64,000 bases of DNA from Paenibacillaceae bacterium. Lineage in GTDB: Bacteria > Bacillota > Bacilli > Paenibacillales > NBRC-103111. Position 1 is the first letter of the stretch. Each line of letters begins with the position of its first letter. A program made the translations under genes and the position numbers. Positions 21,967-59,865 of the stretch are shown here, in pieces. The notes under the pieces are model-generated. The model had not been told where the DNA came from. It did no database searches and saw only the letters and a program-made list of their open reading frames with translations. The stretch is taken from positions 202,409 to 266,408 of the forward strand of contig JAQSYI010000003.1 in assembly GCA_029256185.1 (NCBI GenBank), given 5' to 3'.

Positions 21967-24423
21967 CTAGCCCACACGGCGGAATACGCCGTCCGTCTCT
22001 TCAATAATGACCGTATGTGTTCCCGCAGCCAACGATTGGCCGTACAAATGCCCTGTGCATCCTTCGGGAACGTGCAGTTCTAGTACGTACCGCCCCGCTT
22101 CAGTCTGCTTCAATGCCATGCGGATCTCTCCATACAGCGTCGGCAGCGAAGCTGCGATATCTGTCAGTCCGCATGGTGCCGGAGCCAACTCGAAGTGCTG
22201 GAAGCCGGGAGCCAACGGCTGCAAGCCGAAAATCCCCTCGAATACAAAGAGGATGGGCGAAGCTCCCCAGGCATGGCTGGCGCTGGAATAAGCGACTGTA
22301 CCGTCTGTCTCTTGGTGGAACACGTTCCATCGCTCCCACGTGGTGGTGGCTCCTACATCCAGCATGGCCCCGTACCGGTTCCTGATCAGCTCAAGGGCCC
22401 GGCGGGTCCGGCCGGTTCGGGACAGTGCTCTCCCGATCACCAGCATGAAATAAGGGCTGCCTCTGACAACCGGCGCTCCAGTCTGGCCGCTGAATACGCG
22501 ATGGAAGATGCGGGCAGCCCGCCCGTCTTCCGGGGCGTGAAGGTGAAGCAGGGCCAACGCGTTGGCAGGCTCGCTGATCGTGCCGCTAAGAGCGCCGCCA
22601 ACCAGACAATCCGCATACGCCCCCTCCTCCCCGCTCCACAGCCAGGTTTCCACAGCGGCCTTCAATTTGGCGCATTTGGCCGAAAACAACTGCTCGGCCT
22701 CACTCTCCTTCATCCACGCGGCAAACTCGCCTATCGTCTGCAGCCCTTCCAGATACTGCAGATTTAACGCCGTCACAATCCCGCCACGTTCCACGTCCAG
22801 GGTAGTGCCTCCCGCCCCGTCTCCCCAGTCGATAAACGGCCAGTACGGCACATTCTCCAGCAGACCGTGCTCATTCTCATAGGCTGTGAACCAACGGATG
22901 GCAAGCAATAGCTGCGGCCACCATTCATGCACCAGCCCGGTGTCCCCGGTATAGCGGACATAATCGCGGAAGGAGCAGATCCATGCCAGGCAAAAGGAAG
23001 GAATGGGCGGATAATTGTGATGGCCGTCAGGATATCTGGCCTTGGTCATGCCTGTCCAATCCTGGGATTGCCCCACTTGTCTGAGCAGCTTGCGGTGCAG
23101 ACGGCTGTCGCCGGAATAATGGTAGTTAATCACCGCCTGCCAACGGCCGTCCCCCATCCACTGCTGCTGCTCCCTGCTGGACGAATCGAGAAATCCGTCT
23201 TGCATGCACAGCCGCAGGGTGCGCGCGGAGATATCCCAGATTCCCGCCAACCGCCTGTCACTGCACTGAAGCGTTGCGGTATGCGCAAGCGGATAACGCC
23301 GCGTCCGCAGCCCCACCCGGTGAATGATAACCGGCCCCCGGTGATTGCGCACCCGAAGCTGCGCATACCGGAATGCCCGCCAGGCGAATGCAGGCTCCAG
23401 CACATTGCGCCCCTCGGCAAGAATGTAGCGTTCGACAGGGCGGTTGTTGTTCATATTCAGCAGCGCCTGCCCCTCCCACAATTCCTCGGCATAAATCACA
23501 TCCAGAATATCCCCTTTACTGCCTGTCACTTCAAGCTGCAAGTATCCCGCAGCCATCTCCGCGAAATTGAAGGTGATAACAGAAGCTTGTCCCGGCAAGG
23601 AGGTCGGTACCGTGTATTCGCCTGTTAATGTCTGACAGCAGGGGGAAGCTTCCTGCAGAATGGGCTGCTCCGCATGAATCTGATGATGAAGGCGCTCCGG
23701 AGGCTGCGGCATCTCTGTCAACACTCCCGTATTGACGATGCTCCCCGCTTGGATTTCCTCTTCCTCCAACAGCGGAATATCCCGCACTACCCAATTCCAG
23801 AACGGAGACAAGCGGCTTCCCCGCCCCTTGGCTTGCGCCCAACCCGTCTCCTCGTAATCCGCAGCCGCCCAATTTACCGGTATCAATCCCATATCCACAA
23901 TCTCTATGGGGCCCTGACACCCGTTAATTCTCGGCGCGTTCCTGAGCCATGCGTCGGCGGCAAGGCACTTCCAGCTGGAATCGCTGTGTACATAGAACGG
24001 CTCGCCTCCAGGCAAGACCATCGCCGCCTCCACGGCCAAGGCCGGAATCCGGCTGATGGACTGGCCTGTGCCGTAGCCGTAATACAAGGCCAGTACGGCA
24101 ATGACGTTATTCCCCCGTCTCATATGCGCCGTTATGTCCCATTCATCCACATATTGCTCCCGCGGGTCGCTGCGGCATGGCCCCCTGCCCGCGTAAGTGC
24201 CGTTCACAAACAGCTTGTAGCGGGAATCGGCGAACAGCAGCACCCGGGCATGGTCCGGTTGTGCATCCAGCTCGAAGGTTTTGCGGAAATAACAGAATGC
24301 GTTAACCGGCTGCTCGTAATGGTTTTCCACCTGGTCCGGATGCCAGATCAGCTGGGTTTGCTCCCGCCAGGTCATACCCCGGCTTTGCTCCCGTTTAAAT
24401 CTGGGACTGTCGGCTAGATTCAC
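21967..24423 (-). CDS. GH78-type alpha-L-rhamnosidase-like glycosidase (copy A)
   Basis: FRKTF, ADSRYKLFVNG, AWRAFRY, acid region DSSSREQQQWMGD, base region TTTWERW, SHAW and LAPGF. No signal peptide. Confidence 0.85.
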   Translation of the reverse strand: MNLADSPRFKREQSRGMTWREQTQLIWHPDQVENHYEQPVNAFCYFRKTFELDAQPDHARVLLFADSRYKLFVNGTYAGRGPCRSDPREQYVDEWDITAHMRRGNNVIAVLALYYGYGTGQSISRIPALAVEAAMVLPGGEPFYVHSDSSWKCLAADAWLRNAPRINGCQGPIEIVDMGLIPVNWAAADYEETGWAQAKGRGSRLSPFWNWVVRDIPLLEEEEIQAGSIVNTGVLTEMPQPPERLHHQIHAEQPILQEASPCCQTLTGEYTVPTSLPGQASVITFNFAEMAAGYLQLEVTGSKGDILDVIYAEELWEGQALLNMNNNRPVERYILAEGRNVLEPAFAWRAFRYAQLRVRNHRGPVIIHRVGLRTRRYPLAHTATLQCSDRRLAGIWDISARTLRLCMQDGFLDSSSREQQQWMGDGRWQAVINYHYSGDSRLHRKLLRQVGQSQDWTGMTKARYPDGHHNYPPIPSFCLAWICSFRDYVRYTGDTGLVHEWWPQLLLAIRWFTAYENEHGLLENVPYWPFIDWGDGAGGTTLDVERGGIVTALNLQYLEGLQTIGEFAAWMKESEAEQLFSAKCAKLKAAVETWLWSGEEGAYADCLVGGALSGTISEPANALALLHLHAPEDGRAARIFHRVFSGQTGAPVVRGSPYFMLVIGRALSRTGRTRRALELIRNRYGAMLDVGATTTWERWNVFHQETDGTVAYSSASHAWGASPILFVFEGIFGLQPLAPGFQHFELAPAPCGLTDIAASLPTLYGEIRMALKQTEAGRYVLELHVPEGCTGHLYGQSLAAGTHTVIIEETDGVFRRVG

Positions 24424-24472
24424 AGCTCACGTTCACTCCCAACTGATATGCTGAAAAATATTTGCTGGCTCC

Positions 24473-24530
24473 ATTGTACTTGCAGCGGTCCGCTTCACTT
24501 TATAAAATATATGGGGATCTTTATAAAATT
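24473..24530 (-). promoter_or_regulatory. Promoter of GH78 copy A: -10 TACAAT plus direct repeat TTATAAAAT-N12-TTATAAAAT
   Basis: -10 at 24473-24478 and repeats at 24500 and 24521 (21-bp period). The same motif occurs at 33134 and 42740. Confidence 0.65.
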
Positions 24531-24610
24531 TAAAGATCTTGTCATCTTCTAACTAATATAACGTCTCGTAAATTCATTCCTCATTCTTGGGGCCGGTCCT
24601 TCCCGGCTTG

Positions 24611-24791
24611 CAACGGACCTGAGAGACGCTAATCGGGGGAAAAACGGGGGTTGACGCGGCTAACGGACTGGAAAGACCTTATCCGGCCCAATATCCCTCT
24701 GGATGGGGGCAAAGTAGTCCAATAAGAGCGCTCAAGTCCGTTATAATTCCAAACCCCCGTTTTTTGACCGAATAAAGGCGCTCAGGTCCGT
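24611..24791. repeat. Second, inverted copy of the ~185-bp composite palindromic element
   Basis: Units CAACGGACCTGAGAGACGCTAAT, TAACGGACTGGAAAGACCTTATC, AATAAGAGCGCTCAAGTCCGTTA and AATAAAGGCGCTCAGGTCCGT, with central CCCTCTGGATGGGGG. The reverse complement aligns with 2958-3141. Confidence 0.8.
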
Positions 24792-24804
24792 CCCTCGGAT
24801 TTTA

Positions 24805-24967
24805 GGGGCTTGTCTGAGCACCCGCTTGAGGGCATCTTTTCACTGCCCTTTCACCACGAGCTATCGTTACTTTCGCTTGACGTACCCCGGTACGCCTGCC
24901 CGAGAGGGCCTGGTCAGCAACGACTATCTGGGAATTATCTCCTCCCCTTAGAGGTTCAGACACGCCC
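24805..24967. mobile_element. MITE-like 163-bp element with imperfect terminal inverted repeats flanked by TA
   Basis: TA-GGGGCTTGTCTGA ... TCAGACACGCCC-TA, an internal palindrome GACGTACCCCGGTACGCC, and no ORF. The ends recall IS5-family (TA-target) termini from memory, not from a search. Confidence 0.55.
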
Positions 24968-25217
24968 TAAAGCGGTGACTCTTCTTCGCCAAACTGCTCC
25001 CATAGAAGTCGCTTCCCTTTTGTGCTCACTATGTTTAGCCCGTCCGGGTTGTTCTCCTGTAGGGAACGAATTTACAATATGATGTACTAGGGCGTCCCGC
25101 CGCTGGATGAAGCGGACTCATCCTCGAAGATCACGCCGAATTCACACAGCTCCTTCACAAAAGAATGGATCGCAACCACTCTCAGAAGTGTCCAGAAAAA
25201 TGAAGCGGGCCTTCCTG

Positions 25218-25249
25218 TTGACAAAAAAGGCTTCCAAATGTAACATTTG
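25218..25249 (+). promoter_or_regulatory. SigA promoter of the MFS gene with an overlapping palindrome
   Basis: TTGACA (25218)-17 bp-TAACAT (25241). The palindrome CAAATGT-A-ACATTTG (25235-25249) overlaps the -10. Confidence 0.7.
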
Positions 25250-25327
25250 TTTTTCAGCGCATTCTAGGGCGCGTTTGCAAACACGGCCTAGCGCTGAATT
25301 GGGCTAATCCAAGCTTCGGAAGCAGAA

Positions 25328-26860
25328 ATGGAGTGCAGGGAAATGAACAAACCACAAATGATGAAACGGGAACATGTGCTGGCCGGACTGCTGCTGGCCA
25401 CTTTTTTGGCTGCTATTGAAGGGACGGTCATCGGGCCGGCCGGCCCGACCATAGTCGGAGAGTTGGGAAATGTCAGCCTGCTAAGCTGGATTTTTACCGC
25501 TTATCTGTTAACGATGGCCGTAACAACGCCCATATTCGGCAAGCTGAGCGATTTGTTTGGACGCAAGCCCGTATTTATGGCAGGCTGTGCTTTATTTGCT
25601 CTCGGCTCGCTTTTATGCATGTTTGCGAATTCCATGAGCAGCCTCATTATTTACCGCGCCATCCAAGGCATGGGTGCCGGAAGCGTGATCCCCATTACCT
25701 TTACCATTATCGGAGATATTTACAAACTGGAGGAACGGGGTAAAATCCAGGGGTTAATCAGTTCCGTGTGGGGTGTATCCTCACTAGTCGGCCCACTCTT
25801 GGGCGGATATGTGGTTTCTTATCTGGGATGGGAGTGGATTTTCGGATTTAATGTGCCGCTTACCCTGTTGGCGATGTTTTTTATTTACCGTTATCTGGAG
25901 GAGAATATCGCCAAGCGCAAGGCCAGGATCGATATTCCGGGGGCTGTTACCTTTACATTGGGTATGACAGCACTGCTGCTTGCACTAACCTTGGGCGGGC
26001 AAACGCTGGCTTGGTCATCTCCCGGCCTGCTTTTGCTTGCGGCATGCGCCGTAATTATGCTCGGACTGTTCCTGTGGATTGAGAAAAGAGCCGCCGAGCC
26101 CATTGTCCCCCTGTACTTATTCCGGATTCGCGACCTCACGGTTTCTTATATAGCGGCACTGCTGATCAGCTCACTGGTCATCGGACTGACAAGCTTTCTG
26201 CCGCTGTGGATTCAAGGGGTCCGCGGCGGCGACGCTGCCTCCTCCGGTCTGGCCCTTCTGCCCATGTCCATCGGGTGGTTTACCAGCTCCATTATCGGAG
26301 GGAGATTAATGTTTACCATCGGGTCCCGCCTGTCCACCATGATCGGACTATCCTTTATCGTGCTCGGAGGAATGGGCATGGCCTTCCTGAGCAATGCCTC
26401 GCCCTCCTGGTATTTGCCCTTGTGCACATCCTTGTACGGTCTGGGATTCGGCTTCTGTATAACCGTCTTCACCATCTTGGCCCAGTCCAGCGTCGGCTTT
26501 GAACTGCGGGGGGCATCCACTGCGCTGAGCACCTTCCTGCGGACGTTGGGCCAGACCATCGGAGCCGCGGCCTTCGGCTCATGGCTGAACCACCGGATTG
26601 CCTCCGGTGCCCGGGAATCCGATCTTTTCAGTCAGGGAGTCACCCAATCCCACATCAACTCCCTGCTTGCCCCCCACGGGCAGCAAATTGATAGCCAGAT
26701 TGCCCTGCTGCTGCGCGATCTGCTCGATAACAGTGTCCACTCGCTCTTCATCTTAATGGCAGGCATTGCCGTGATAAGCTGGTTCGCCGGACTGGGCCTG
26801 CGCAAGCATCAGGCTGCCGGCCAACCGGAAAGCCTGGTTCCTAACAGAGAAGGCGCTTGA
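25328..26860 (+). CDS. DHA2-family MFS multidrug transporter
   Basis: FLAAIEGTVIG, FGKLSDLFGRK (motif A), IYRAIQGMGAG, GDIYKLEERG and ~14 TM. The start may be the ATG at 25343. Confidence 0.93.
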   Translation: MECREMNKPQMMKREHVLAGLLLATFLAAIEGTVIGPAGPTIVGELGNVSLLSWIFTAYLLTMAVTTPIFGKLSDLFGRKPVFMAGCALFALGSLLCMFANSMSSLIIYRAIQGMGAGSVIPITFTIIGDIYKLEERGKIQGLISSVWGVSSLVGPLLGGYVVSYLGWEWIFGFNVPLTLLAMFFIYRYLEENIAKRKARIDIPGAVTFTLGMTALLLALTLGGQTLAWSSPGLLLLAACAVIMLGLFLWIEKRAAEPIVPLYLFRIRDLTVSYIAALLISSLVIGLTSFLPLWIQGVRGGDAASSGLALLPMSIGWFTSSIIGGRLMFTIGSRLSTMIGLSFIVLGGMGMAFLSNASPSWYLPLCTSLYGLGFGFCITVFTILAQSSVGFELRGASTALSTFLRTLGQTIGAAAFGSWLNHRIASGARESDLFSQGVTQSHINSLLAPHGQQIDSQIALLLRDLLDNSVHSLFILMAGIAVISWFAGLGLRKHQAAGQPESLVPNREGA

Positions 26861-27075: not shown

Positions 27076-27156
27076 CTATTCTATGCGAAATTTCATACAG
27101 AATGGCCCTGCCGAGGGCAGCCCTGGCCTATTCTATGCGAAATTTCATAATAGAAT
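27076..27156. repeat. Two 52-bp-spaced copies of palindromic CTATTCTATGCGAAATTTCATA
   Basis: Identical 22-mers at 27076 and 27128, with a small CTGCC-GAG-GGCAG hairpin between them. Confidence 0.85.
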
Positions 27157-27332
27157 TGGGTGACGAAGGCCCCCCTGTTGTTTGTTCATTTTGCCGCCGT
27201 AGTTTTTTTGAAGGTCTCAGAAAATATAAACGGGGAAGCGGCTCCATTTCTTGACAAACGCCGGTTGACAAAGGACGCCGTCATGCGTTTATCCTCGGAT
27301 AAGCTGTTCGGCTGTTCCTTCGCAAATCAGCT

Positions 27333-30032
27333 TCATTCCTGCCGGACAAAAGCAGCGGCGGCAGCCCGCAGCGCTCCTCCGGGAGCCAGCGGGTCCAGGT
27401 GGGACAATTTCACGTATCCCCCGGTGCCCGCCTGGAAAGAGTAAGTGCCCAAGGACACCCAGCCGGCGCTTCCCGCCGTATAATCCAACACCCGCTGGCT
27501 TACACCGGCGGTATGGTATACCTGCAGCCTGCTGGCGGGTTCGCTGTTGGAGCTGGTTACCCGGTATACAAACACCTCGTAGGTTCCCGCTTCAAGGTCC
27601 GGCGTCCAGGAGGCCGTGGCATTGCCTGCAAAGCTGTAGCGGGTAAGATTGCCGTCATGCCCCTTCAGACCGCTGTTGATCCATGATGATCCCGTCTCCC
27701 CATACCCCGCTCCCCATACAGGGACAACCAGGGCATCTTCCGGCAAAGGCGCCGTGGACCAATCCAGAATATCCGGTACGCCCGCGCCAAGGGCAAAGCT
27801 CAGCCGGTTCGCCGCAATATTGTCCACAATGCCTTGGATCAGAATGCCTGCAGTCAATTGCGGCCTGGAATCGGCAATCGTTAACCCGTCGACCTCAATA
27901 TCGTCGCTATGCTCAATGGACAGGCCCGCGAAGACGCCGTTAACCGCTTGTGTACCTGTAACTTCAATCCCGTTGTCGGTAAGTACGGCTCCCCTCACGC
28001 CGCCCAGATAGATGCCGTTGCGCACCGGATTGCGGACCAGATTACCCTCCAAGACAATATCCGTAATATTTCTGCCGTCCGCCACCGCCCGGCCGCTCTT
28101 CTGCGAGAACACGGTAATGGCTGCCGCATAAGGGTGCCTGCTGTACACATCCAGAAAATTAACATGGTCCGTTACATTGTTGAGGACATGAATATTCATG
28201 GGGGCGGGTCCGTTGGGAACGTCAGGATCATCCGTGAGCATAACGCCCGCATTACCCAGATTTTGGAACAGATTGCCCTCAATCCAGCCGTCCGTGGATT
28301 TCAGATACAGCCCATTGCGCCGGGAATCGCGGAAAATGCTGTCCGTTATGCTGAAGCCCGCTCCCACCGTACTCAAATTGTAAACCAAATCGGAGTCGGA
28401 CGGAGTGGAACCGGCATGGAGTCCGGCTACCGGCGTGTCCAGCGTAATCAGCGCCTTGGTCGCCGGAGCCAGGGCATCCGGCTGCACGGAGACAACCGTG
28501 GCCGTGCCCAGCACAACCCCGTTCACCGCGCGGAAAAATTGCAGACGGTCTCCGGCCCGGGGCACCTTCGATCCGGATATCCCCTGCACATGCAGCTCCG
28601 TCTCCGAGATGATCTGCGAGATAAGCAGCGGCCGGTTGTAGATGGCCACGATATCATCCATCACCCCTTCAAACAGGGAATCATGAACCACAGGCCCTGT
28701 TCTTGCCGATTGCACATGAACGGAATCCGCATTGGTGACGATCATCTGGTTGCTTCCGGGCTTTCGCATAATGCGCAAACAGTCGATCTCAATACCGTCG
28801 GTGTAGTAGCCCACAAGCGTGGCGCCGGAGGAGGCGTGGACCGTTACATCCGTAACGGCGACAGTATCCGACTCCTCCAAGCGGAAGATGCCGTTGCCGT
28901 GATCCCGTGTGACGATGACGAACGGATCTCCGGCCTCGATTTGTCCCGGACCCACCTGAGACGGTACAGCCGCCTGGAACCGGTACGTCATCCCGTCGGG
29001 CAGCTTCGTCCAACCGTTCACATTAATATGATCGTTGGCGCTGCTCTTCATCAGCAGGGGGTTGGCCGCATCCCGGACGGTGCCCCATATTCTGGGCAGC
29101 TCCCCAAAGCGCGGGTCCGCGAGCAAGGTGTAGCCCGGATCTGGAACAAAATCGAAGGTGGATGCCGCCGGATCGATGGAGGCAACCGTCCCCTGGATAA
29201 ACGGCGGCGTCTCGTATTCGATGGTTATTCCCTCAAACGAAAGCTCCGAGCAATCCACACAGCGGAAAAAGCCGGCAACGGGATCGGTAATCAACAGCAC
29301 CGTTTCGTCTCCAACCAGCTCAAGATTCTGCAATTCATGGAATAAAAAGCTGAAGGAGTACATGAGTTCATTGCGGACCGTACCTGCATCAAACCGGAGA
29401 TGATCCAACTCCAATACGCCGCTTGCCGGGTCATCTCCGAAACGGACGGACACCTGATGAACAGCCCCGCTCCACTGGGCATATCCGCTCAAATCGAAGA
29501 CATATTCCGTGGCCTGCGTATCGTACGGCGTCAGCGCAATGGTTGCGCTTCGCAGAGCGGTCCACGGCTGTCCCGGGGCATCCGTCCAGAAGATCGTGGC
29601 CTCCTCCGCATCCGATGCATTCTTCAGCAGCAGCTTCACTTGCTTGTATTTGCTTGCGTCCAATCCCAAATAAGCGGGCGAGGTGATGCTTAATGGTCCC
29701 GCAGCCCCTGCCGTTGCCGACAAGCTGCCTCCGCCCACCGACGAATAAGCGGCATTGGTTACTGTCCAATCCCCGTCCGTTCCACCGTTCGAGAAGCCCC
29801 ATTGCGCCTGCGGCGGAGCAATCCGGTATGTTCCCGGCGAGAGGGATACAGGCAGGCCTGCACCGGCCCCTTCCAGCATGGCTTGCCGAATCGCCCGGGT
29901 ATCATCCAGCCCGTCACCGGCCACAGCCCCGTAATGCTCGGGTCTGACAACGGCATCGGCAGAAACGGTGAAAACCGCAGCGCCGCCACCGCCAATCCCA
30001 AGGACAACCCATAACGCAAGCAGCAGCTTCAT
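27333..30032 (-). CDS. Secreted right-handed beta-helix glycosidase, GH110 (alpha-galactosidase)-like, with an inserted CBM-like module and a C-terminal golvesin/Xly-CBD-like domain
   Basis: Start re-called at ATG 30032 (RBS GGAGGG, signal peptide MKLLLALWVVLGIGGGG...ADA). Motifs: HYGAVAGDGLDDTRAI, GITIEYETPPFIQGTV, NADSVH...FEGVMDD and C-terminal ATASWTPDLEAGTYEV...GWVSLGTYSF. Confidence 0.7.
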   Translation of the reverse strand: MKLLLALWVVLGIGGGGAAVFTVSADAVVRPEHYGAVAGDGLDDTRAIRQAMLEGAGAGLPVSLSPGTYRIAPPQAQWGFSNGGTDGDWTVTNAAYSSVGGGSLSATAGAAGPLSITSPAYLGLDASKYKQVKLLLKNASDAEEATIFWTDAPGQPWTALRSATIALTPYDTQATEYVFDLSGYAQWSGAVHQVSVRFGDDPASGVLELDHLRFDAGTVRNELMYSFSFLFHELQNLELVGDETVLLITDPVAGFFRCVDCSELSFEGITIEYETPPFIQGTVASIDPAASTFDFVPDPGYTLLADPRFGELPRIWGTVRDAANPLLMKSSANDHINVNGWTKLPDGMTYRFQAAVPSQVGPGQIEAGDPFVIVTRDHGNGIFRLEESDTVAVTDVTVHASSGATLVGYYTDGIEIDCLRIMRKPGSNQMIVTNADSVHVQSARTGPVVHDSLFEGVMDDIVAIYNRPLLISQIISETELHVQGISGSKVPRAGDRLQFFRAVNGVVLGTATVVSVQPDALAPATKALITLDTPVAGLHAGSTPSDSDLVYNLSTVGAGFSITDSIFRDSRRNGLYLKSTDGWIEGNLFQNLGNAGVMLTDDPDVPNGPAPMNIHVLNNVTDHVNFLDVYSRHPYAAAITVFSQKSGRAVADGRNITDIVLEGNLVRNPVRNGIYLGGVRGAVLTDNGIEVTGTQAVNGVFAGLSIEHSDDIEVDGLTIADSRPQLTAGILIQGIVDNIAANRLSFALGAGVPDILDWSTAPLPEDALVVPVWGAGYGETGSSWINSGLKGHDGNLTRYSFAGNATASWTPDLEAGTYEVFVYRVTSSNSEPASRLQVYHTAGVSQRVLDYTAGSAGWVSLGTYSFQAGTGGYVKLSHLDPLAPGGALRAAAAAFVRQE

Positions 30033-30092
30033 CGGACAGGGAACCCTCCACCGCTTCCCAACAGTCTCTTCTTTAGAAGCAAACATCGCCGA

Positions 30093-33164: not shown

Positions 33165-33192
33165 TTAAGAATGCGGCAATCCCCGCATGGCT

Positions 33193-49662: not shown

Positions 49663-49704
49663 AGAGTGAACTCCCTCTTCCCTTTTTGAAATAAATGCCA
49701 TTCA

Positions 49705-51528: not shown

Positions 51529-53154
51529 CTACACCTGCTCTCTGAACTCGGTGGGATTCATACCGGTATGCTTCTTGAACAGCGTGCTGAAATAGAAGGG
51601 GTCCTTCACACCCACGGCAAATGCGACCTCTGAAACCCGCAGCGCAGTTCCGCTCAGATACTCCTTGGCCTTCTCCATGCGCACTTTCATGAGATATTCG
51701 GTAAAGGTGCTGCCGGTTTCCTGTCTGAATAATCTGCTGAAATAGGTGGGATGGACCTGCAGCTCTGCGCTTAGCACATTAATAGAAATATTCTCCATTT
51801 GATAGTGCTCATGGATGAAGGCGGCAGCAATTTCAATCAGCTTATTCTTCCTGCCGCCACGGCTGTCCAGAATATAGCGGGATATATCCGACAGCAGTGT
51901 CATCAGTCCCTGCTCTGCCTCATCCATGGTCTTGTATTGGGCGATTGCCTCGTATGGATTATAGTCCTTGCCGTACATATCCTTTAGCCGCAGGGCCGTT
52001 TGCAGGGATTGGGTGATGATGCGGGCGGTGCATTCCGTCACATAAAGCCGCATGTCGGTGATACTGAGTCCCCTTGCTTGCCGCAGCCGTTCGAAGAAAG
52101 CGTTGAGGGACTGCTTCAGCTCCGCCACTGCTCCGGAGCGGATCGCCGCTATGATCCTGTCCGGATATTCATCAGGAAATCCGGACCAGACCTGGCTTGG
52201 ATGGAGATGAATCAGGTCTACAGGAATAACCGCGTTCCTGCCGATCAGAAACCGGTATTCAATCGCCTCCCTCGCCTCCTTGTAGGATTCCGGGACGCCT
52301 GCATACCCGCTTTTCACCCCTCCCACTCCGATGCTTACCGTTACACGGCAGGCCTCCAGAATCCTCTGCCTGAGCTGATCGATACTATCGAATACCGTTT
52401 CGTCTGCGGCATGCTCCTCTGCATGCTGCAGAATCACCACAATTTGGTCATGCTCGCTGTGGAAGGACACTCCTTTGGAGGAATCGCTTACATAACGCTC
52501 CACCTCTCGCTCAATCAGTACAGACAAGAGTCCCTTGCCTACAGCAGGCTCCATCTTGCCGCCAAAGAGACTTTCCTCCGGTTGATCCGGCTCGATAATC
52601 AGTACGCAATAGCGTTCTCCGTCAAGAGGCAGCTGGAGCATCTGCAGCTTGGCAGGAACATCCCCCGCCGCCATGCGCCCGGACACCCATAGATTCAGGT
52701 AGCGCTCCCGCAGAAGAGGGAAGCTTGTTTCCAGAATGCTCATGGCCGCCTGAAGACGTCGCTCCTCCTGACGCATGGCCTCCGCCTCGTCCCTGGCCTG
52801 AAGAATGGCCTCCTCCAGCTCCCTTTTCGTGAAGGGCTTCAGCACATATTTCATCACCGACAGCTCCATGGCGCGCTTGGCGAACCGGAACTCCTCATAG
52901 CCCGACAGGAAGACGATCTTAATATGGGGATACAGCCTTCGTGCTTCCTCTGCCAGCTGAATCCCGTTCATCAGCGGCATATGAATATCCGTGATCAGGA
53001 TATCGGCGTAATCCCTGCGCAGCATCTCCAAGGCCTCAAGACCGTTCTCGGCCGAGCCTGCAAAGTCAAGCCGGAGGGACGGCCAATCCATCTTACCGGC
53101 AATTTTTTCCCGGATTATCCTTTCGTCATCAACCAGCAGCACTCGCATATTCAT
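51529..53154 (-). CDS. YesN-family response regulator
   Basis: VLLVDDE, ITDIHMP, YVLKP, VHPTYFSRLFRQETG and DPFYFSTLFKK. Confidence 0.95.
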   Translation of the reverse strand: MNMRVLLVDDERIIREKIAGKMDWPSLRLDFAGSAENGLEALEMLRRDYADILITDIHMPLMNGIQLAEEARRLYPHIKIVFLSGYEEFRFAKRAMELSVMKYVLKPFTKRELEEAILQARDEAEAMRQEERRLQAAMSILETSFPLLRERYLNLWVSGRMAAGDVPAKLQMLQLPLDGERYCVLIIEPDQPEESLFGGKMEPAVGKGLLSVLIEREVERYVSDSSKGVSFHSEHDQIVVILQHAEEHAADETVFDSIDQLRQRILEACRVTVSIGVGGVKSGYAGVPESYKEAREAIEYRFLIGRNAVIPVDLIHLHPSQVWSGFPDEYPDRIIAAIRSGAVAELKQSLNAFFERLRQARGLSITDMRLYVTECTARIITQSLQTALRLKDMYGKDYNPYEAIAQYKTMDEAEQGLMTLLSDISRYILDSRGGRKNKLIEIAAAFIHEHYQMENISINVLSAELQVHPTYFSRLFRQETGSTFTEYLMKVRMEKAKEYLSGTALRVSEVAFAVGVKDPFYFSTLFKKHTGMNPTEFREQV

Positions 53155-53185: not shown

Positions 53186-56100
53186 TTACTGTAAAAAGGG
53201 TGAGCCGTCAGCCATAATATTGGAAATTATTCTTGTCCCTCCCCTGCTCCGGTCTGTCAACAAGATCCCTCCGCCGGCTGCAGAACGAAGCTCACAATCA
53301 AAGCCCCGGCCTTGAAGCCGCCAGCCCTCCGGGCTCTTGCACACCGTCGGTCCAGGCTGCCCATCCGGTCCGTCCGCCGTCAGCAGCATGGCGAACAGCG
53401 GCTCCCCGCCCTCCGATGAACAGCGGATCTCGATTGTCCCCTGTCCGGACCGCTCCCCCTTGCTGCCCTTGGCCGGATAATCCGTACCCATGACCCTGAG
53501 CGGTCCGGGAGCCAGGATAGCCTGCAGACGCAGCCTGCAATCCTTCCCGTAGTCAGCCCGGACCTCTTGGTCCGTCCGCTCAATTGCGGTCTCCGCAAGG
53601 TGATATCTGACAGTCTGGGACAGCGGATCGGAGGCGGAATCTATAATAAGATAGGCTGCGGGAGCCAGCTGCACCACGGTGCGGTGATGGCATACGGCCG
53701 ATGGCATGGGAGCATACAAGGCATGCGCGGAGGTATGCATGATCACAGGAATGCAGGCGGTGGCGTAAGGAAACGGCCCCTGCACGTCATGGGATATTAG
53801 CCAGCCCCGGTTAAAGCTCCACAGATAATCAAGCGGCTCGTATCGGTCAAGCGTCCAGCGGCTGTGGCCGTCTGAAGTGAACTTCCTGCGCCCGGACTCC
53901 TGATCGTGGCCGAAAGCCGCATCTGCAATCAGGGATTTGCCTCTGGCAAAAAACTGGATGCTCCCATCGTCATTATGGTGATGGGCCCAGGCTCCTCCGC
54001 TGCGAAGGGCGAGCAGACATTCCTGACCATCCTCATCCACGTCCCGAAACATGAAGCCCAATCCCTGCACGTACTCATTGACCGGCTCACAGGCGATGGG
54101 CTGGACTGACGTTGGCGCCGGCGCTGCCGCAGCTGGCAGGTCAGCCCTATACGAGAGCCCATCCCCGTCCCGGGAAGCCGCAGTCGCCGGCGCATTGGGG
54201 GAGGGATCGCCGCCCATCTCCCGGTGCAGCCAGAGCAATCGGCCGGCCAGCTCCGGGTAATGGGGCTCCATCGCCTGCCCATAAGCGGCATAGAGGTACC
54301 TGTAGGTGTCCGGGTCGGCAAAATGGTCGCCAAAGGCAATCAGATGTCTTCTCCCGTGCATATGACCGGTTCGCGGAGTACGCATCTTCAAGGCAGCTCC
54401 TGCCAGTTTGGCCAACGCCGGATTGGCGAATTCGTCATCCACTCCATCCGCCCTCCGGCGAAGGAGCGTAGGCAGCACAGTATGCAGCACATGCTGGTAA
54501 TACGTATGGCTCTCCTCCCACAGACCGCTGTCCGGGTACATATGAAGCTCCAGCTGGCGGTGCCACATGCGGATAAACCATTCCTGCCACTGTCTTGCCT
54601 CCGGATGTTGGCTGAACACCTGAGCCGCCATTCCCGCAATATTGAACGCATCCGTGTAGAAGTTTTGGTTGCACATGCCGCCGTAAGCAAGACTGAGGGA
54701 ATCCGGGTTATCCGCCGGCAGCATGGACGCTTCTCCCGGATAGTAGTGAGGGGAAGCGGCCAGATGCACCAGAAAGCTGCAATGCGCTCTGATGAGGAGA
54801 AGCTGCTTCTCCGTCAGCAGATGTTGCTCCGCCAGCCATTCCAGGTAAAGCAGATTGGGGGCCGTTTCCCTGCTTACCACATAATTCGTATAGGCGCTGC
54901 CTGAGCCCTCCCAGAAGCCGTATATCCGCGCCTCCAGATAATCCGTGAGACAGCGGATGCGCTGCTGCTCCGAAGGGTTGGCCAGCCCGTTCTTCACGGC
55001 AAGGAGCAGATGCTTGTCGAGGACGAAGTGAGGGTAGCGAAAAGACGGCATCTCTCCCGCTTCAGCCCCGCCCTGCCGCTCCTGAGGCCAGTCAAACACC
55101 ATGCGGCACATATTTTGCAGCGGCATCAATCCGAACTGGGTATGCAGCTTGCGCAGCAGGACCTGCTGCCGCCTGTAGCGGCTGCGGTCCGGCCGGTACT
55201 CGAAATGGCCCAGAGCGGCGTCTTCGTCCGCCTGAAGCTGCCGGACTTGCCGAGCCTCGCGGAATTCCCGGACCTCCTGCGGCCTCCGTCCGTCCCCGCT
55301 TCCCTGAAGTCCCTCGGCTGCTCCGAATTTCCCGCCTCCTCCCGGCGGCAGCATCTTCGGCCAGTCTGCGGCAGCAAGGCCGTAGCTTCGCTCCCCTCCG
55401 CCGATCCAGCCCTCCACGCACAGATGCGGCTCGCACACCTGCCGCCCCCGCATCGGGATGCTCTCCGGCCCCGGCCTCCCATCAGCCTTCACTTCCGGCG
55501 GCACCTCCCTGCGGCTCCCCCTGTCACCCTGCGGCCACCTGCGGGTCCAAAGCTCCAGTTGATTCAGACGCGCCCCTCGCCAGCCTCCGCCCTCCAGGGC
55601 GAAGAAGCCGGCGCAATCGCCCTCCTGGAACCGGATTGCATAGCCATCCCGCAGATCGAACAGCTGAGAGTTTTGGGTCCAGCCCGCCAGGCGGGCATGT
55701 CGCTGGTCGAATTGCCGCTGCGGCCGGATCATCGTATATCCGGCTGTAGCATCCAGCATATGAAGCGACTGCGGGAACTCCGTGGGTCCGAAATCCCAAA
55801 CCAGTTGATCCCCTGGCGATGCGCTGAAGCGCTCCTTGATGCGGGCAAACGGCAGTCCCGCGTCCACGATCACATCTGCCTCATAGTAGCCGTCTGCGCC
55901 GATAAGAGCCTGGTAGCGGTAATGAATTCTCAGCGGCCCCTTTTCCAGAAGGGCGCCGGAGGTATGTCTGACAGGCTGGCGTGTATCGAAGAAGGTGCCG
56001 CCCCGCCAGCTCCCCTGAGCCGCCTTGAAGCGGAGCACCGGTCCGGGAACCGCCAGCTCCATATGCTCTCTGCAGCCCTCTGCGTATTGCCGCTGCTGCT

Positions 56101-56500
56101 GCGAGACCTGGATGCTCATAAGCCCGTTGGACAGCGTCTGCGTTTTGCCGGCCTCTTCAACAGTGCATTCCCCCGCGATTGCGCTTGGCGCCTTCCCTTC
56201 GTCAGCCTGCACCGGTGCCCCATTGGCCGCCTCGCTCTGCCTCCCGGTATCATCGGCAGTCAGGCTGAGCCGTTGGAAGGGCTCCAGCTTAACCAGCAGG
56301 AAGCCGGTGCCCGGCTTAGAGCGGGAGGACTGAAGGGGAAACTCCCCGCCCGCGCATCGGTCCTTCAGCAGCATTTGCTCCGGTGAATCCGGCGGTATTG
56401 GAACCTCAATCACTTGTATATCATGGGCCAAGCCGCAGGATTCCGTTATTTCTATAAGATAAGGGTTCATCTGAACGTGAAGCATGCTTTTAGCTATCAT
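53186..56500 (-). CDS. Large cytoplasmic protein with C-terminal heparinase II/III-like fold (putative oligosaccharide lyase)
   Basis: GLWEESHTYYQH, IAFGDH, and ALRSGGAWAHHHNDDGSIQFFARG.SLIAD. No signal peptide. Family assignment is by motif resemblance only. Confidence 0.6.
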   Translation of the reverse strand: MIAKSMLHVQMNPYLIEITESCGLAHDIQVIEVPIPPDSPEQMLLKDRCAGGEFPLQSSRSKPGTGFLLVKLEPFQRLSLTADDTGRQSEAANGAPVQADEGKAPSAIAGECTVEEAGKTQTLSNGLMSIQVSQQQRQYAEGCREHMELAVPGPVLRFKAAQGSWRGGTFFDTRQPVRHTSGALLEKGPLRIHYRYQALIGADGYYEADVIVDAGLPFARIKERFSASPGDQLVWDFGPTEFPQSLHMLDATAGYTMIRPQRQFDQRHARLAGWTQNSQLFDLRDGYAIRFQEGDCAGFFALEGGGWRGARLNQLELWTRRWPQGDRGSRREVPPEVKADGRPGPESIPMRGRQVCEPHLCVEGWIGGGERSYGLAAADWPKMLPPGGGGKFGAAEGLQGSGDGRRPQEVREFREARQVRQLQADEDAALGHFEYRPDRSRYRRQQVLLRKLHTQFGLMPLQNMCRMVFDWPQERQGGAEAGEMPSFRYPHFVLDKHLLLAVKNGLANPSEQQRIRCLTDYLEARIYGFWEGSGSAYTNYVVSRETAPNLLYLEWLAEQHLLTEKQLLLIRAHCSFLVHLAASPHYYPGEASMLPADNPDSLSLAYGGMCNQNFYTDAFNIAGMAAQVFSQHPEARQWQEWFIRMWHRQLELHMYPDSGLWEESHTYYQHVLHTVLPTLLRRRADGVDDEFANPALAKLAGAALKMRTPRTGHMHGRRHLIAFGDHFADPDTYRYLYAAYGQAMEPHYPELAGRLLWLHREMGGDPSPNAPATAASRDGDGLSYRADLPAAAAPAPTSVQPIACEPVNEYVQGLGFMFRDVDEDGQECLLALRSGGAWAHHHNDDGSIQFFARGKSLIADAAFGHDQESGRRKFTSDGHSRWTLDRYEPLDYLWSFNRGWLISHDVQGPFPYATACIPVIMHTSAHALYAPMPSAVCHHRTVVQLAPAAYLIIDSASDPLSQTVRYHLAETAIERTDQEVRADYGKDCRLRLQAILAPGPLRVMGTDYPAKGSKGERSGQGTIEIRCSSEGGEPLFAMLLTADGPDGQPGPTVCKSPEGWRLQGRGFDCELRSAAGGGILLTDRSRGGTRIISNIMADGSPFLQ

Positions 56501-56515: not shown

Positions 56516-57397
56516 CTACTTTTCCGCCGCCGATATGACGAAATCCTGCATCAGGAAGCGTTGCGATACGAAGTACAGGATAACCGGAATCAATGCCATG
56601 AACAAGGCGACACACATGATATACGACCACTGCACGTAGAACACCCGGTTAAAGGTGGACAGCGCGACCGACAGCGTCCGGGTAGCCGCATCGTTGCCTA
56701 CATACATGAGCGGGCCGAAGAACTCGGACCAGTGCCCGTTCACCTGCTGGATAATCACCATAATCAGCGGCGCCTTGATATTGGGCAGCACGATCCGCCA
56801 CAGGATGGTCAGAGCGCCCGCCCCGTCCATTTTGGCCGATTCGAACAAGCTGATGCTTAAGGTGAGCATAAACTGCCGCAGCAGGAAGATGGTGCCGGGG
56901 CCTCCTCCCAATGCCGGAATCAGCAAGGGAAGGTATGTCCCCGTCCAGCCCCAATCGGCGAACATGACATAATTGGGGATGAACATCACCGTGCTGGGGA
57001 TCATCATGGTGGCCAGCAGGAAGAAGAACAGCTTGTTCCGGTAAGGAAACCGGAAGAAGGAGAAGCCGTAAGCGATCAGCAAGGAAGATACAATAAAGAA
57101 GATGGTGCCGAATACGGTATAGAACACCGTATTCTTCAAGGCGGACAAAAACTGAAAATCCTGCTGGGAAAAGGCCTGCTCAAAGTTGGTCCACAGAAAT
57201 TGCCGGAACCATTGGCCTCCAAGCGTGTACGTATCACTTTGCAGCGCAGCGCTGACCATCCATAGAAAGGGAACCATAAAGACAAACGAGCATCCGGCAA
57301 TCAACACATAAATGACGGTCATTTCCAGTATGCTGCGCCTGTTCTTCCGCTTGCGTCCAATGGAAAACGCCGTTTGCACCCTGCCAGCTGTTTCCAT
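56516..57397 (-). CDS. Carbohydrate ABC permease (MalG-type)
   Basis: AYGFSFFRFPYRN, FLLRQF and EAA motif LFESAKMDGAG. Start at 57397 (RBS GAAAGGA) or 57418. Confidence 0.92.
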   Translation of the reverse strand: METAGRVQTAFSIGRKRKNRRSILEMTVIYVLIAGCSFVFMVPFLWMVSAALQSDTYTLGGQWFRQFLWTNFEQAFSQQDFQFLSALKNTVFYTVFGTIFFIVSSLLIAYGFSFFRFPYRNKLFFFLLATMMIPSTVMFIPNYVMFADWGWTGTYLPLLIPALGGGPGTIFLLRQFMLTLSISLFESAKMDGAGALTILWRIVLPNIKAPLIMVIIQQVNGHWSEFFGPLMYVGNDAATRTLSVALSTFNRVFYVQWSYIMCVALFMALIPVILYFVSQRFLMQDFVISAAEK

Positions 57398-57401
57398 AGG
57401 G

Positions 57402-58370
57402 CTATCGTCCTTTCGCATTCATATTCTCGTAATACACCCAAGCGCCGGACGAGCGGAATACAAGCGCCGCAAATCCTGCAATAATGGCAAACAGCACCCA
57501 GGAGATGGCAGCGGCATAGCCGAATTGGAAATCCACGAATGCCGCCTTGTACAGCTTCAAAAATATAAAGTAGGTGGCGCCGTTAGGGTTGCCCCAGGAC
57601 CGGATATCGTTGTTGTTGCTGGTCATCACATAAGCCTGGTCAAAAGCCTGGAGATTGGCGATAATGCTCATGATCAGATTGTACAGGATAATCGGCGAAA
57701 TCATCGGCATGGTGATACGGGTGAATCTCACCCAACGGTTGGCTCCATCTATTTCCGCCGCTTCATACAGATTGCTCGGGACCCCTTGAAGCGCCCCCAG
57801 ATAGAGAATGATTCCCGTTCCCGCCATAAAGCAGTTCATGATTACGAAGCTGGGAATAACGGTCGCTTCATTCTCCAGCCAATGAAGCGAAGGAACTCCG
57901 AATACCGACAACGCTTTGTTCAGAATGCCGCTTTCGGCAAAGATCAGTCTCCATAGCACAGCGCTGGCCACACCGGGAATTACCGCCGGCAGATAGAAGA
58001 GGGTCCTCCACAGAGGCAGTCCCTTCACCTTCTGGTTCAGCAGCACGGCAAAGAATAACGCTGTACACAAGGTTGCGGGAACGTTCAGCAGGGCATACCG
58101 GAAGGTGACCAGGATGGATTTCCAGGTCTCCGGGTCCCGCAGCAGCAGATCGGCAAAATTGCTTGTTCCCACCCACTCCGGCGCGCTCAGCACATCATAC
58201 CTGGTCAACGCGTAATACATGGACATGAAGAACGGCCGGATAAAAAACAGGGAACAGCCCACAACCCAGGGAAGAATGAACAGAATACCGGCCAGCGCTT
58301 CCTTTTGGGACATGCTCCATCTCAGTCTCCGGATTCCGGACCGGTATGTTTTATTTGCTTGCGGCATCAT
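57402..58370 (-). CDS. Carbohydrate ABC permease (MalF-type)
   Basis: FILPWVVG, RTLFYLP and EAA motif LYEAAEIDGAN. Confidence 0.92.
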   Translation of the reverse strand: MMPQANKTYRSGIRRLRWSMSQKEALAGILFILPWVVGCSLFFIRPFFMSMYYALTRYDVLSAPEWVGTSNFADLLLRDPETWKSILVTFRYALLNVPATLCTALFFAVLLNQKVKGLPLWRTLFYLPAVIPGVASAVLWRLIFAESGILNKALSVFGVPSLHWLENEATVIPSFVIMNCFMAGTGIILYLGALQGVPSNLYEAAEIDGANRWVRFTRITMPMISPIILYNLIMSIIANLQAFDQAYVMTSNNNDIRSWGNPNGATYFIFLKLYKAAFVDFQFGYAAAISWVLFAIIAGFAALVFRSSGAWVYYENMNAKGR

Positions 58371-59865
58371 ATTTGGTCCAGGCTTCCTTGTAGTCGTTAT
58401 ACTGCTGCTCGAACAGCGGCGGAATAATATCCTTGTAGTTCAGCTTGCCCTTGCGCAGGTCCGGAATCTGCGCGTTCAATTTCTCCAGCGGCTTCTGTCC
58501 TGCCGGATACTGCTTCAGCATTTCCTGCGGCGGCTGTTGAACCGGCAGAGAGCCTTCCTTGATCAGATGCTCCCCCAGCTCGATCATAATCTGCGCATTG
58601 ATCTCTCCCACCTGCTGCTTCAGCTTCGCCAGGGCTGCATTGTCGGTGAAGGAGGGCAGTGTTCCGACGGAGGACAGATCATAATTGGCACTTTCATATT
58701 CAGGTGAGTGGAGGAATTTCACGAATTCCCAAGCCGCTTTCGGATAGGGTGTTGCGGCGAAAATTTTGGGACCTTGACCGGTGAAGCCGTGAACCCTGAA
58801 TTGATCCTCCATTCCTTCCTTGTGGGGATACATGGTGAAGGCGTATTCAATTGGCTTTTTTCCCGCCTTTTCCCGCTCGGGGTTGGCCTTGGCATCGAAA
58901 TAATCGAAGGCCCACGAGCCCATGCGGCGGATGACCACCTTCTCATTCTCGATATTGATGCCGTCCGCCTTCACATCCACATCAGGATGGGGAGCCACCT
59001 TATGCACCAGCGCCAGATCGCTCATGAATTGCAGCGCTTCTATTGCCTCCGGCTTCACAAAGTTGATGCCCGGCGCCATCATTCTGCCGTTCTCGATCAG
59101 ATCGGTATAGACCCCCACCGATGCCGCCCAGTCCGTCCGTCCCCAGCCGAAATTGTCATCCGTCCCGTAAATATCCGTTTTGCCATCTCCATTGGTATCC
59201 ACAGTGGCCTTCTTCAGAAGCTCCGCGTAGTTGTTCCAAGTCCAGTTCTTGTAGCTGGGATCATCGAAGGACTTGGGGATCTGGTCGTAAATCCCGTATT
59301 TCTTGGCCAGTTCCACGTTATACCAGAGTCCGTACACAACGCTTCCCGTAGGCAAATAATAAATTTGTCCATTATAAGGAAGATATTGGAATATATCCTT
59401 CTGTGCCCAGGGCCAGTTCTTGAGCCCGTCCCGCTCAATCCAATCATTGTAGGACAAAAACACCTTCTTGTCATAAAATTGATTGTAGCCGTCACCTCCA
59501 AGATCAAGCACGGAGATGTCGGCCGTCTGCTTGGCTGCCACCTTGGACAGCATGAATTGACGCAGCTCGTTATCCTTCAGACCTACCTCCTCCACCTCTA
59601 CCTTAATGCCGAACTTCTTCTCGAATTCCTGCGCCGGTTTATCCAGAACCGACTTGGAGCCCCAGACCTTTAAGGAGGCTCCCTTCTCCACTAGCTCCTT
59701 CGCTTCCCCTGCAGCCGATGCCGCAGGAGCGCTTGCTGCAGCCGTGCCTGCCGGGCTTGGCTCACTGCCGCTCTTGTCGCTGCTGCACCCTCCCAGCACC
59801 AATCCTGAGATCAGAACAGACGCTGTCAACCATTGAACCGTTTTCATTTTTGACGGATATCGCAT
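58351..59865 (-). CDS. Carbohydrate ABC solute-binding lipoprotein
   Basis: Lipobox LGGC and Ala-rich linker; LWYNVELAKKYG, WTWNNY and KAAWEFVKFL. Confidence 0.92.
   Translation of the reverse strand: MRYPSKMKTVQWLTASVLISGLVLGGCSSDKSGSEPSPAGTAAASAPAASAAGEAKELVEKGASLKVWGSKSVLDKPAQEFEKKFGIKVEVEEVGLKDNELRQFMLSKVAAKQTADISVLDLGGDGYNQFYDKKVFLSYNDWIERDGLKNWPWAQKDIFQYLPYNGQIYYLPTGSVVYGLWYNVELAKKYGIYDQIPKSFDDPSYKNWTWNNYAELLKKATVDTNGDGKTDIYGTDDNFGWGRTDWAASVGVYTDLIENGRMMAPGINFVKPEAIEALQFMSDLALVHKVAPHPDVDVKADGINIENEKVVIRRMGSWAFDYFDAKANPEREKAGKKPIEYAFTMYPHKEGMEDQFRVHGFTGQGPKIFAATPYPKAAWEFVKFLHSPEYESANYDLSSVGTLPSFTDNAALAKLKQQVGEINAQIMIELGEHLIKEGSLPVQQPPQEMLKQYPAGQKPLEKLNAQIPDLRKGKLNYKDIIPPLFEQQYNDYKEAWTKYDAASK

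Follow-up and report, generated by a model that had tools for sequence, protein, structure and literature searches.

Two adjacent candidate glycan-utilisation loci, each with its own importer and two-component system, in a Paenibacillaceae genome

In the yes/ytc rhamnogalacturonan loci of B. subtilis a lipoprotein solute-binding protein (SBP) and two permeases, with no ATPase gene, are encoded together with a YesM-like Cache/HAMP/PF06580 kinase, a YesN-like REC-AraC regulator, a secreted depolymerase and cytoplasmic exo-enzymes, all the genes being co-directional. The same plan was found between positions 21,967 and 59,865 of a 64,000-nucleotide stretch, hereafter the window, of a Paenibacillaceae bacterium genome (assembly GCA_029256185.1, contig JAQSYI010000003.1, positions 202,409 to 266,408 of the forward strand). 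We describe here its two parts, locus 1 (27.3-42.8 kb) and locus 2 (43.6-60.0 kb), which are probably two adjacent but independent glycan-utilisation operons of the Gram-positive type, each with a proposed route of its own.

The enzymes of this region have relatives among several described proteins. The substrates of RhaB, a Bacillus sp. GL1 enzyme, are rhamnosyl oligosaccharides that come from the bacterial exopolysaccharide (EPS) gellan, and glycoside hydrolases (GHs) of clan GH-A are retaining enzymes whose target linkages are beta-D or the stereochemically equivalent alpha-L ones. PslG is a GH39 endo-beta-glucanase encoded in an EPS cluster and directed at the Psl exopolysaccharide (PMC11912335). 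Release of side chains from gum-arabic arabinogalactan is described for other members of GH39 (PMC10688797). The GH110 enzymes characterised so far are all alpha-1,3-galactosidases, the catalytic residues of one of them, PdGH110B, being D321, D344 and D345 (PMC7939477). Among polysaccharide lyases (PLs), those of families PL12 and PL35 and the PL15 enzyme exoHep share an Asn-to-Tyr distance of 54, with the His lying downstream in the beta-sandwich (PMC12088678, Table 4).

The segment from 21,967 to 59,865 is a near-unbroken run of minus-strand genes, as seen from the open reading frame (ORF) listing and from Pfam and NCBIfam scans; the candidates scanned with Pfam were chosen from the window's ORF lists, with lengths of at least 120 aa beyond 18 kb and at least 150 aa before it. 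The co-directional genes are tightly packed, with small gaps and plausible ribosome-binding sites, which supports the operon reading. An earlier reading made from the letters and their ORFs (the sequence-only reading) had listed two GH78 enzymes, a GH106-type and a GH110-like enzyme, a giant secreted protein, a lyase-like protein, two sets of SBP and permeases and two YesMN pairs, and every one of these genes is real and lies where it had been placed. By Pfam content and gene order both loci have the Gram-positive layout of an ATP-binding cassette (ABC) importer with YesMN regulation (SBP, two CUT1-type permeases, a YesM/YesN pair and carbohydrate-active enzymes, co-directional); the architecture is thus that of an ordinary polysaccharide-utilisation operon of this kind, in a standard Paenibacillus carbohydrate region. 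No GH28, PL1, PL9, PL11, GH105, GH88 or carbohydrate esterase CE12 gene was found among the scanned candidates of the window, which bears out the earlier remark that this is not a canonical pectin locus for rhamnogalacturonan I or II (RG-I, RG-II). The enzymes fall in known fold classes (GH78, GH106, clan GH-N/GH110-like, clan GH-A/GH39-like and toroid-type lyases), and three of them stay below the sequence thresholds of their nearest curated families: in keeping with the suggestion of the same reading that several enzymes could define new families, the 1104-aa lyase-like protein and both catalytic-type modules of the giant (modules A and B) gave neither an above-threshold Pfam or NCBIfam match nor a direct sequence match in the PDB.

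Locus 2 is a seven-gene cassette made of an SBP, two permeases, the lyase-like protein, a response regulator, a histidine kinase and the giant. The cassette recurs in the same order in P. donghaensis (L001) and in a metagenome contig (L006), and in permuted order in Paenibacillaceae WGS1546 (L008), with a module B protein in the place of the giant. No rhamnosidase was found within the 10-kb flanks fetched around these three other cassettes, whose neighbours are unrelated. In the window the two loci share neither transporter nor two-component system, and the conserved promoter motif of one is unrelated to that of the other. On the side of locus 1, a scaffold of Paenibacillus sp. YN15, to which the present organism, itself a Paenibacillus, is closely related, shows about 96% DNA identity to window positions 27,302-40,132, and its synteny extends to the very 3' end of the GH110-like gene and no further. 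Taken together, the lone locus-2 cassettes, the separate regulation and the YN15 synteny favour two adjacent loci, which the sequence-only reading had offered as its own alternative; its headline, a single polysaccharide-utilisation locus (PUL) of about 38 kb for one glycan holding both rhamnose and uronate, finds no support, given that the locus-2 cassette occurs alone in three Paenibacillaceae. Moreover, since it is locus 1 that points to rhamnose and locus 2 that points to uronate, the notion of a single rhamnose-plus-uronate glycan is itself unsupported.

A single PUL, in which both loci and the GH78a gene described below would serve one rhamnose- and uronate-containing glycan and the two importers would take up two classes of fragments, therefore seems improbable. 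It would fit with the loci being adjacent, on the same strand and about 0.9 kb apart, with their similar G+C content at third codon positions (GC3) and with the many enzymes that complex glycans such as RG-II need; it fits poorly with the locus-2 cassette being found by itself in three other Paenibacillaceae, none of which has a rhamnosidase within 10 kb of it, with sensors, importers and promoter motifs all being separate, and with the presence between the loci of a small, low-GC gene of the PNPOx family (42903-43481). The GC3 of this gene is 0.43, against 0.63-0.79 for the two loci. A third, unrelated locus of ABC, YesMN and GH94 genes lies next door, so that clustering of such loci is simply common here, which also argues against a single PUL. 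Horizontal transfer from high-GC actinobacteria was considered as well for the jumps in GC along the region and was rejected, as the genes for enzymes, transporters and regulators have a uniform GC3; the GC differences for that reason reflect amino-acid composition.

The two-operon reading having been set out, we turn to the contents of locus 2, all of whose genes lie on the minus strand. Its first gene encodes SBP2 (58351-59865), a lipoprotein of Pfam family SBP_bac_1 that is 74-75% identical to its counterparts in P. donghaensis and the metagenome contig, followed by the permeases perm2a (57402-58370) and perm2b (56516-57418), which together span 56516-58370, were identified by Pfam and are 81-82% identical in the same two genomes. 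Past the lyase-like gene come, again by Pfam, the YesN-type response regulator RR2 (51529-53154) and the YesM-type sensor kinase HK2 (49705-51522), the latter 65-67% identical in these genomes. Upstream of SBP2, a block of about 60 bp (59895-59955, minus strand) aligns among the window, P. donghaensis and the metagenome contig and reads TCAACA..TTAAAGG..AAAAT.CTCTATTCT...TGGTAT; this presumed locus-2 promoter block is unrelated to the repeat found in locus 1. In a Streptomyces locus, too, a module B protein is accompanied by an SBP and a pair of permeases as well as by a distant relative of the lyase-like protein (hhalign probability 94.5%). In a further genomic context of the lyase-like gene (L002), neighbouring GH42 and CBM9 genes were considered as possible relatives of module B and dropped, the relation being not significant.

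The giant protein (43555-49701, likely start at 49662, minus strand) is 2048 aa long, carries a signal peptide and would thus be secreted. Pfam scans and mapping of its modules resolved, from the N-terminus, the signal peptide, module A (nt 47554-49446), a domain resembling a carbohydrate-binding module (CBM) and an immunoglobulin-like (Ig) domain; then module B with an Ig and a CBM9/DOMON-like domain (nt ~44185-46614) and two ChitinaseA_N domains (nt ~43580-44140). Local BLAST of its relatives showed that the giant is a fusion of two modules. Module B (residues ~1030-1839) forms the core of proteins of 940-1,450 aa, nearly all labelled hypothetical, which occur in Paenibacillus, Streptomyces, Nonomuraea, Armatimonadota, Chthoniobacter and Scytonema. 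Its AlphaFold2 (AF2) model reached a predicted local distance difference test (pLDDT) value of 95.7, and Foldseek placed it closest to the GH39 protein 5jvk of B. cellulosilyticus (E=4e-19) and to PslG (~1e-16), GH30 xylanases coming next. The pair N1164-E1165 and residue E1267 are nearly invariant across the relatives. The GH39 Pfam model itself stayed below threshold (PF01229, E=0.0049, 16.2 bits against a cut-off of 26).

Module A (residues ~86-716) matched no Pfam family, GH39 included. When a profile of 45 members was compared with the PDB, 5jvk was found at E=2e-6 with the nucleophile segment VWiTEiG aligned, and many GH1 enzymes followed at ~1e-3; conserved residues of the module are R..E..W, N333-E334, H410/Y412 and E490. 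Thus an NE(P) acid/base and a nucleophilic Glu are nearly invariant in both modules, and the hallmarks of clan GH-A (a (beta/alpha)8 barrel, the Asn-Glu acid/base following strand 4 and the Glu nucleophile following strand 7) are present, in module A as judged from motif and profile alone. The model firmly places module B in clan GH-A as a GH39-like module, and membership of module A in the same clan is supported by its profile and motifs; the "dual GH-A giant" of the sequence-only reading holds in this graded form. The modules are not detectably of the same family, as their profile-profile comparison gave a probability of 3%. A direct sequence search of the PDB with the giant returned no match.

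An exhaustive profile search recovered relatives of module A in 1,144 clusters at 50% identity, so that module A represents a large unannotated family. A word-index search had returned 13 relatives of the 1104-aa protein, 19 of module A and 72 of module B, counts that are not family sizes, and the idea that these families are rare was dropped once the 1,144 clusters of module A were set against its 19 word-index relatives. The word-index search also missed the 60%-identical module B protein of P. donghaensis when the full giant was the query.

The second enzyme of locus 2 is the 1104-aa protein (53186-56500, minus strand), which has no signal peptide and is predicted to be cytoplasmic. At full length it matched nothing in Pfam, NCBIfam or the PDB by sequence, and its family profile likewise found nothing in the PDB; the 13 relatives of the word-index search are unnamed, save one with the JGI label "Heparinase II/III-like". 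Its AF2 model (pLDDT 74.8, predicted template modelling score 0.78) shows an N-terminal beta domain (~1-375), an alpha/alpha toroid (~400-760) and a C-terminal beta-sandwich, that is, the toroid plus antiparallel beta-sandwich of the PL12/PL15-type fold. The first 20 Foldseek matches in the PDB are all polysaccharide lyases, with E values from 1e-8 to 1e-12: PL12 heparinase III (4mmi, E=6e-12) is the best, PL15 Atu3025 (3afl) and exoHep follow at 2-3e-11, and PL39, PL35 and PL33 are also found (the matches to PL12, PL15, PL39 and PL35 range from 6e-12 to 1e-9), PL21 and PL17 ranking later and dermatan-sulfate epimerase 1 standing at rank 21. The earlier reading had proposed Foldseek searches with predicted structures as a check, and they gave PL12/PL15 for this protein just as they gave GH39 for module B. 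In the C-terminal half, Hepar_II_III_C, Hepar_II_III_N and DUF4962 were detected below threshold, Hepar_II_III_N and C at E=0.06 and 0.09 (13 bits against cut-offs of 22-24).

Three elements are invariant in the family of the 1104-aa protein (ORF numbering): N613 in NQNF, Y667 in ESHTYY and H840-842 in HHHNDD. As a candidate triad they fit, by their sequence spacing (Asn-Tyr 54), the values of PMC12088678, Table 4. From the fold and from this spacing along the chain we infer the lyase chemistry and take the protein to be a putative PL12/PL15-like lyase that would act next to a uronic acid. That it has the same fold and another reaction, such as C5-epimerisation, hydrolysis or binding, in which case locus 2 need not target a uronate glycan at all, appears rather unlikely. 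The fold does include a dermatan-sulfate epimerase (6hzn, E=6e-8), the Pfam heparinase models reach just E=0.06-0.09, most of the fold matches show nothing as big as the N-terminal beta domain of this protein, and no enzymes of unsaturated-uronate catabolism lie nearby among the scanned candidates. On the other hand, the 20 best fold matches are lyases without exception, the invariant Asn-54-Tyr pair and the downstream His-rich motif fit the spacing of the lyase triad, the epimerase acts on uronates too, and exo-lyases that release unsaturated monomers, among them the oligoalginate lyases of PL15 and PL17, work without a GH88 or GH105 partner.

Locus 1 contains a different set of enzymes, likewise encoded on the minus strand. 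Its operon begins with GH78b (40210-42666), a paralog of which, GH78a (21967-24423), lies at the other end of the region; both are predicted to be cytoplasmic alpha-L-rhamnosidases and are 82% identical. In each, the Bac_rhamnosid N-terminal, concanavalin-like, six-hairpin and C-terminal domains score above the Pfam thresholds, the six-hairpin domain with 116 and 111 bits against a cut-off of 24.5 (Bac_rhamnosid6H, E=2.6e-33 for GH78a and 7.1e-32 for GH78b), and RhaB (2okx, E=3.7e-91) is the best solved relative of both copies. The GH106-type alpha-L-rhamnosidase (30093-33107, likely start at 33050 after a check of the ribosome-binding site), also predicted to be cytoplasmic, belongs to Pfam Glyco_hydro_106 (PF17132, 68.8 bits, cut-off 29). 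With NCBIfam AlphaRhamBT4145 it gave E=1.6e-22 and 79 bits against an equivalog cut-off of 1300, and since that cut-off is not reached it is to be seen as a distant family member; in the PDB it aligns with BT0986 at the N-terminus, over residues 19-101 only.

The third enzyme type of locus 1 (27333-30086) is a 917-aa protein with Pfam Beta_helix and C-terminal Golvesin_C domains, whose N-terminus shows a basic stretch followed by a hydrophobic, signal-like segment and which is predicted to be a secreted, GH110-like glycosidase with a right-handed beta-helix. It matches the alpha-1,3-galactosidase 8pvs at E=2.2e-13 over ~240 residues, and 9i4f at E=1.4e-6. The motifs AD..H and FEG.MDD are kept in the alignment with the solved enzymes, and D454, D477 and D478 fall in them with the same spacing (23) as the catalytic residues of PdGH110B. 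A secreted, inverting glycosidase is thus a reasonable reading of these motifs; as the gene sits in a rhamnosidase operon, the sugar bound in the -1 subsite may not be galactose.

The importer of locus 1 comprises SBP1 (36716-38278), a lipoprotein by its LAGC lipobox that matched no Pfam or NCBIfam family and is 99% identical in YN15, and the BPD_transp_1 permeases perm1b (38347-39219) and perm1a (39231-40184), which together span 38347-40184. Next to it lie HK1 (34883-36610), a YesM-type kinase with dCache_1, HAMP, His_kinase (PF06580) and HATPase_c domains, and RR1 (33193-34851), a YesN-type response regulator with REC, GGDEF_2-like and AraC helix-turn-helix domains by Pfam, starting at M83; these genes are all on the minus strand as well. 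The mechanical ORFs of RR1 (33193-35097), perm1b (38347-39513) and perm1a (39231-40616) were over-extended by 82-144 codons at the 5' end into the preceding genes, and the likely starts after correction are 34851, 39219 and 40184, respectively.

Both GH78 genes are preceded by two direct copies of ATWTTAKAARG, 21 bp apart, found by alignment on the minus strand at 24498-24529 in the leader of GH78a and at 42738-42769 upstream of GH78b, as a candidate RR1 operator and a candidate locus-1 operator or promoter, respectively. The 11-mer occurs four times in the window, always at these two promoters, and RR1 probably acts through the repeat. The duplication (21977-24531 and 40220-42771, 82% nucleotide identity) includes ~105 bp of leader. 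Using the beta-helix protein in a scan of one genome per species, we found locus-1 contexts only in YN15 and in one very distant match, and a metagenome scan for further contexts found nothing. GH78a and the gene next to it for a transporter of the major facilitator superfamily (MFS; 25328-26860, plus strand, from the ORF and Pfam scans) are absent downstream of the GH110-like gene in YN15. From its absence beyond the end of the YN15 synteny and from the duplicated leader, GH78a appears as a satellite copy that has retained the operon promoter; the system does not include the MFS gene. Just past the synteny break an intergenic tandem repeat (27076-27177, 52 bp x 2) carries an internal palindrome. 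The ~800 bp between the GH78a leader and the MFS gene (24532-25327) hold no notable ORF, Rfam match or gene remnant; the gaps at 24.4-25.3, 26.9-27.3 and 42.7-42.9 kb likewise showed no remnants of genes, and the Rfam scan of the window gave no RNA family.

These elements suggest a route for each locus. In locus 1, the Cache-type kinase and the AraC-type response regulator would turn the operon on; the secreted GH110-like inverting enzyme, with its Golvesin_C-type binding domain, would trim or cut an extracellular, rhamnose-bearing glycan, an LplABC-like ABC importer would take up the products, and the GH78 and GH106 enzymes would strip alpha-L-rhamnose in the cytoplasm. No ATPase gene lies in the locus, so that the importer would presumably be energised by an ATPase encoded elsewhere. 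In locus 2, under the control of its own kinase and regulator, the secreted 2048-aa enzyme would depolymerise an extracellular polysaccharide by means of two differing GH39-like retaining modules and several binding domains, its own ABC importer would take up the oligosaccharides, and the cytoplasmic PL12/PL15-like protein would cleave them beside uronic acid by beta-elimination.

The substrate clues are weak overall. For locus 1 they point to a rhamnosylated glycan; for locus 2 an acidic microbial exopolysaccharide is ranked first as the most likely substrate, with a plant arabinogalactan-type glycan second. A microbial EPS target, proposed in the sequence-only reading, gains some support from PslG and GH39 being the nearest folds and from the genomic contexts of module A relatives, two out of four of which (L010, L011) are EPS-biosynthesis clusters. 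Exosortase EpsH/EpsI, WecG, epimerases and nucleotidyl-transferases are encoded in one of these clusters, and AsnB and many GT2/GT4 glycosyltransferases in the other. A GH172-family gene was also seen 4-5 kb from a module A relative in two unrelated contigs (L010, 18306-19454; L012, 17863-19299).

A plant type-II arabinogalactan of the gum-arabic type was weighed as the target of the region and seems decidedly improbable. The GH110-like protein would then remove alpha-1,3-galactose caps, the GH39-like modules would act like the bifidobacterial GH39 enzymes that release side chains, GH78 and GH106 would remove terminal rhamnose and the lyase-like protein would attack Rha-alpha-1,4-GlcA or GlcA-containing stubs. 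In its favour, gum arabic carries both Rha-GlcA and alpha-Gal-Araf caps, the flanking genes of module B in Streptomyces encode a GH2 beta-galactosidase and a GH36 alpha-galactosidase, and the specificity of characterised GH110 enzymes (PMC7939477) would suit it; but no beta-galactanase, beta-galactosidase, arabinofuranosidase or GH79/GH2 glucuronidase is present among the scanned candidates of the window, the known Rha-GlcA lyases are not among the top 50 fold matches of the 1104-aa protein, and the two loci are genetically independent elsewhere.

Several points weigh against the picture of two independent operons with an acidic EPS as the substrate of locus 2. The adjacency of the loci could still reflect a functional link. 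Module A is tied to clan GH-A by a match of E=2e-6 over ~70 residues together with its motifs, and the lyase assignment by a model of pLDDT 74.8, by 10-14% identity to solved lyases and by motif spacing at the sequence level. No GH88/GH105 or KduI/KduD-type gene for unsaturated uronates was found among the scanned candidates of the window; the other two of the four module A contexts (L012, L013) are not EPS clusters, one being mixed and one catabolic-looking with a distant module B-like gene; and a search of sequence runs for expression data matched only one DNA run, from a soil metagenome, and no RNA run. A wider joint reading is put forward as a tentative possibility: the locus-2 cassette would be a system with which soil Paenibacillaceae scavenge an acidic EPS of other bacteria, founding a new PL family and two new GH-A families near GH39, and module A would be the catabolic counterpart of a widespread, unannotated family of EPS-cluster hydrolases analogous to PslG (>1,100 clusters at 50% identity).

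If the assignments hold, locus 2 offers a compact and conserved handle on three enzyme families that lie outside the curated libraries. A substrate for module A would annotate more than 1,000 protein clusters and could yield biofilm-matrix-degrading enzymes of the PslG type, and the GH110-like enzyme of locus 1, given its rhamnosidase context, could widen the specificity of a family so far limited to alpha-1,3-galactosidases.

The surroundings of the two loci contain other genes. Directly upstream (10080-20748) lies the third carbohydrate locus, in which a YesN/YesM pair and an SBP with two permeases accompany a GH94 phosphorylase, a Zn-dehydrogenase and a DUF386 (YhcH/YjgK) protein. Locus 2 has a PNPOx-family gene on either side, one at 42903-43481 and another within 60088-64000, and the first of them, together with the genes from 60.8 kb on (MFS, MarR, FMN reductase), has a GC3 of 0.38-0.47 against 0.6-0.8 elsewhere. 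At the start of the window a two-component system (407-2166) is followed downstream by a radical-SAM/SPASM enzyme (3469-4851) and, adjoining the latter, an MFS transporter (4890-6392); the pair (3469-6392) may be a cluster for peptide maturation. Two tandem arrays, the units of which contain palindromes, lie at 2366-2767 (52 bp x 7.7, 87% match) and 3218-3403 (40 bp x 4.7), and a mechanical 199-aa ORF (2212-2811) that overlaps the first array is probably not a gene.

When compared with the known systems, the GH78 proteins of the window resemble RhaB (2okx) in their predicted cytoplasmic location and in having it as their best solved relative, and differ from it in length (818 aa against 956 aa) and in the absence of gellan lyase, GH88 and GH3 partners. 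The GH110-like protein shares with PdGH110B, the 8pvs enzyme and PpaGal the beta-helix, the AD..H and FEG.MDD motifs and the D-x22-DD spacing; ~240 residues align, and it has extra N-terminal and Golvesin_C domains. The 1104-aa protein has the toroid and the beta-sandwich of PL12, of PL15 (Atu3025, exoHep) and of PL17, PL21, PL33, PL35 and PL39, with a candidate Asn-(54)-Tyr...His pattern in its sequence, and its predicted cytoplasmic location beside an importer is that of the oligosaccharide exo-lyases. PL15 enzymes have a similar three-domain layout with an N-terminal beta domain. In contrast to the toroid lyases, it gives no match to them at the sequence level, its N-terminal beta domain is much larger (~375 aa) and its Tyr-to-His distance is 173-175, against 130-166.

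The closest folds to module B are PslG of Pseudomonas aeruginosa and BACCELL_00856 (5jvk), with TM values to the target of 0.65-0.69. The TIM barrel with an NE acid/base and a Glu nucleophile is shared with them, 5jvk is also the closest profile match of module A, and relatives of module A lie in EPS-biosynthesis clusters, as pslG does, in the two contexts mentioned above. The differences are an identity of only 16-19%, the constant association of module B with Ig and CBM9/DOMON-like domains, and the setting, in which the modules belong to a catabolic operon with an importer and no glycosyltransferases were found among the scanned candidates of the window. With respect to the yes/ytc loci, whose transport and regulatory plan is shared, the RG-I enzymes PL11, GH105, CE12, GH28 and GH42 were not found among these candidates; the enzymes present instead are GH78, GH106 and a GH110-like protein in one locus and GH39-like and PL-like proteins in the other.

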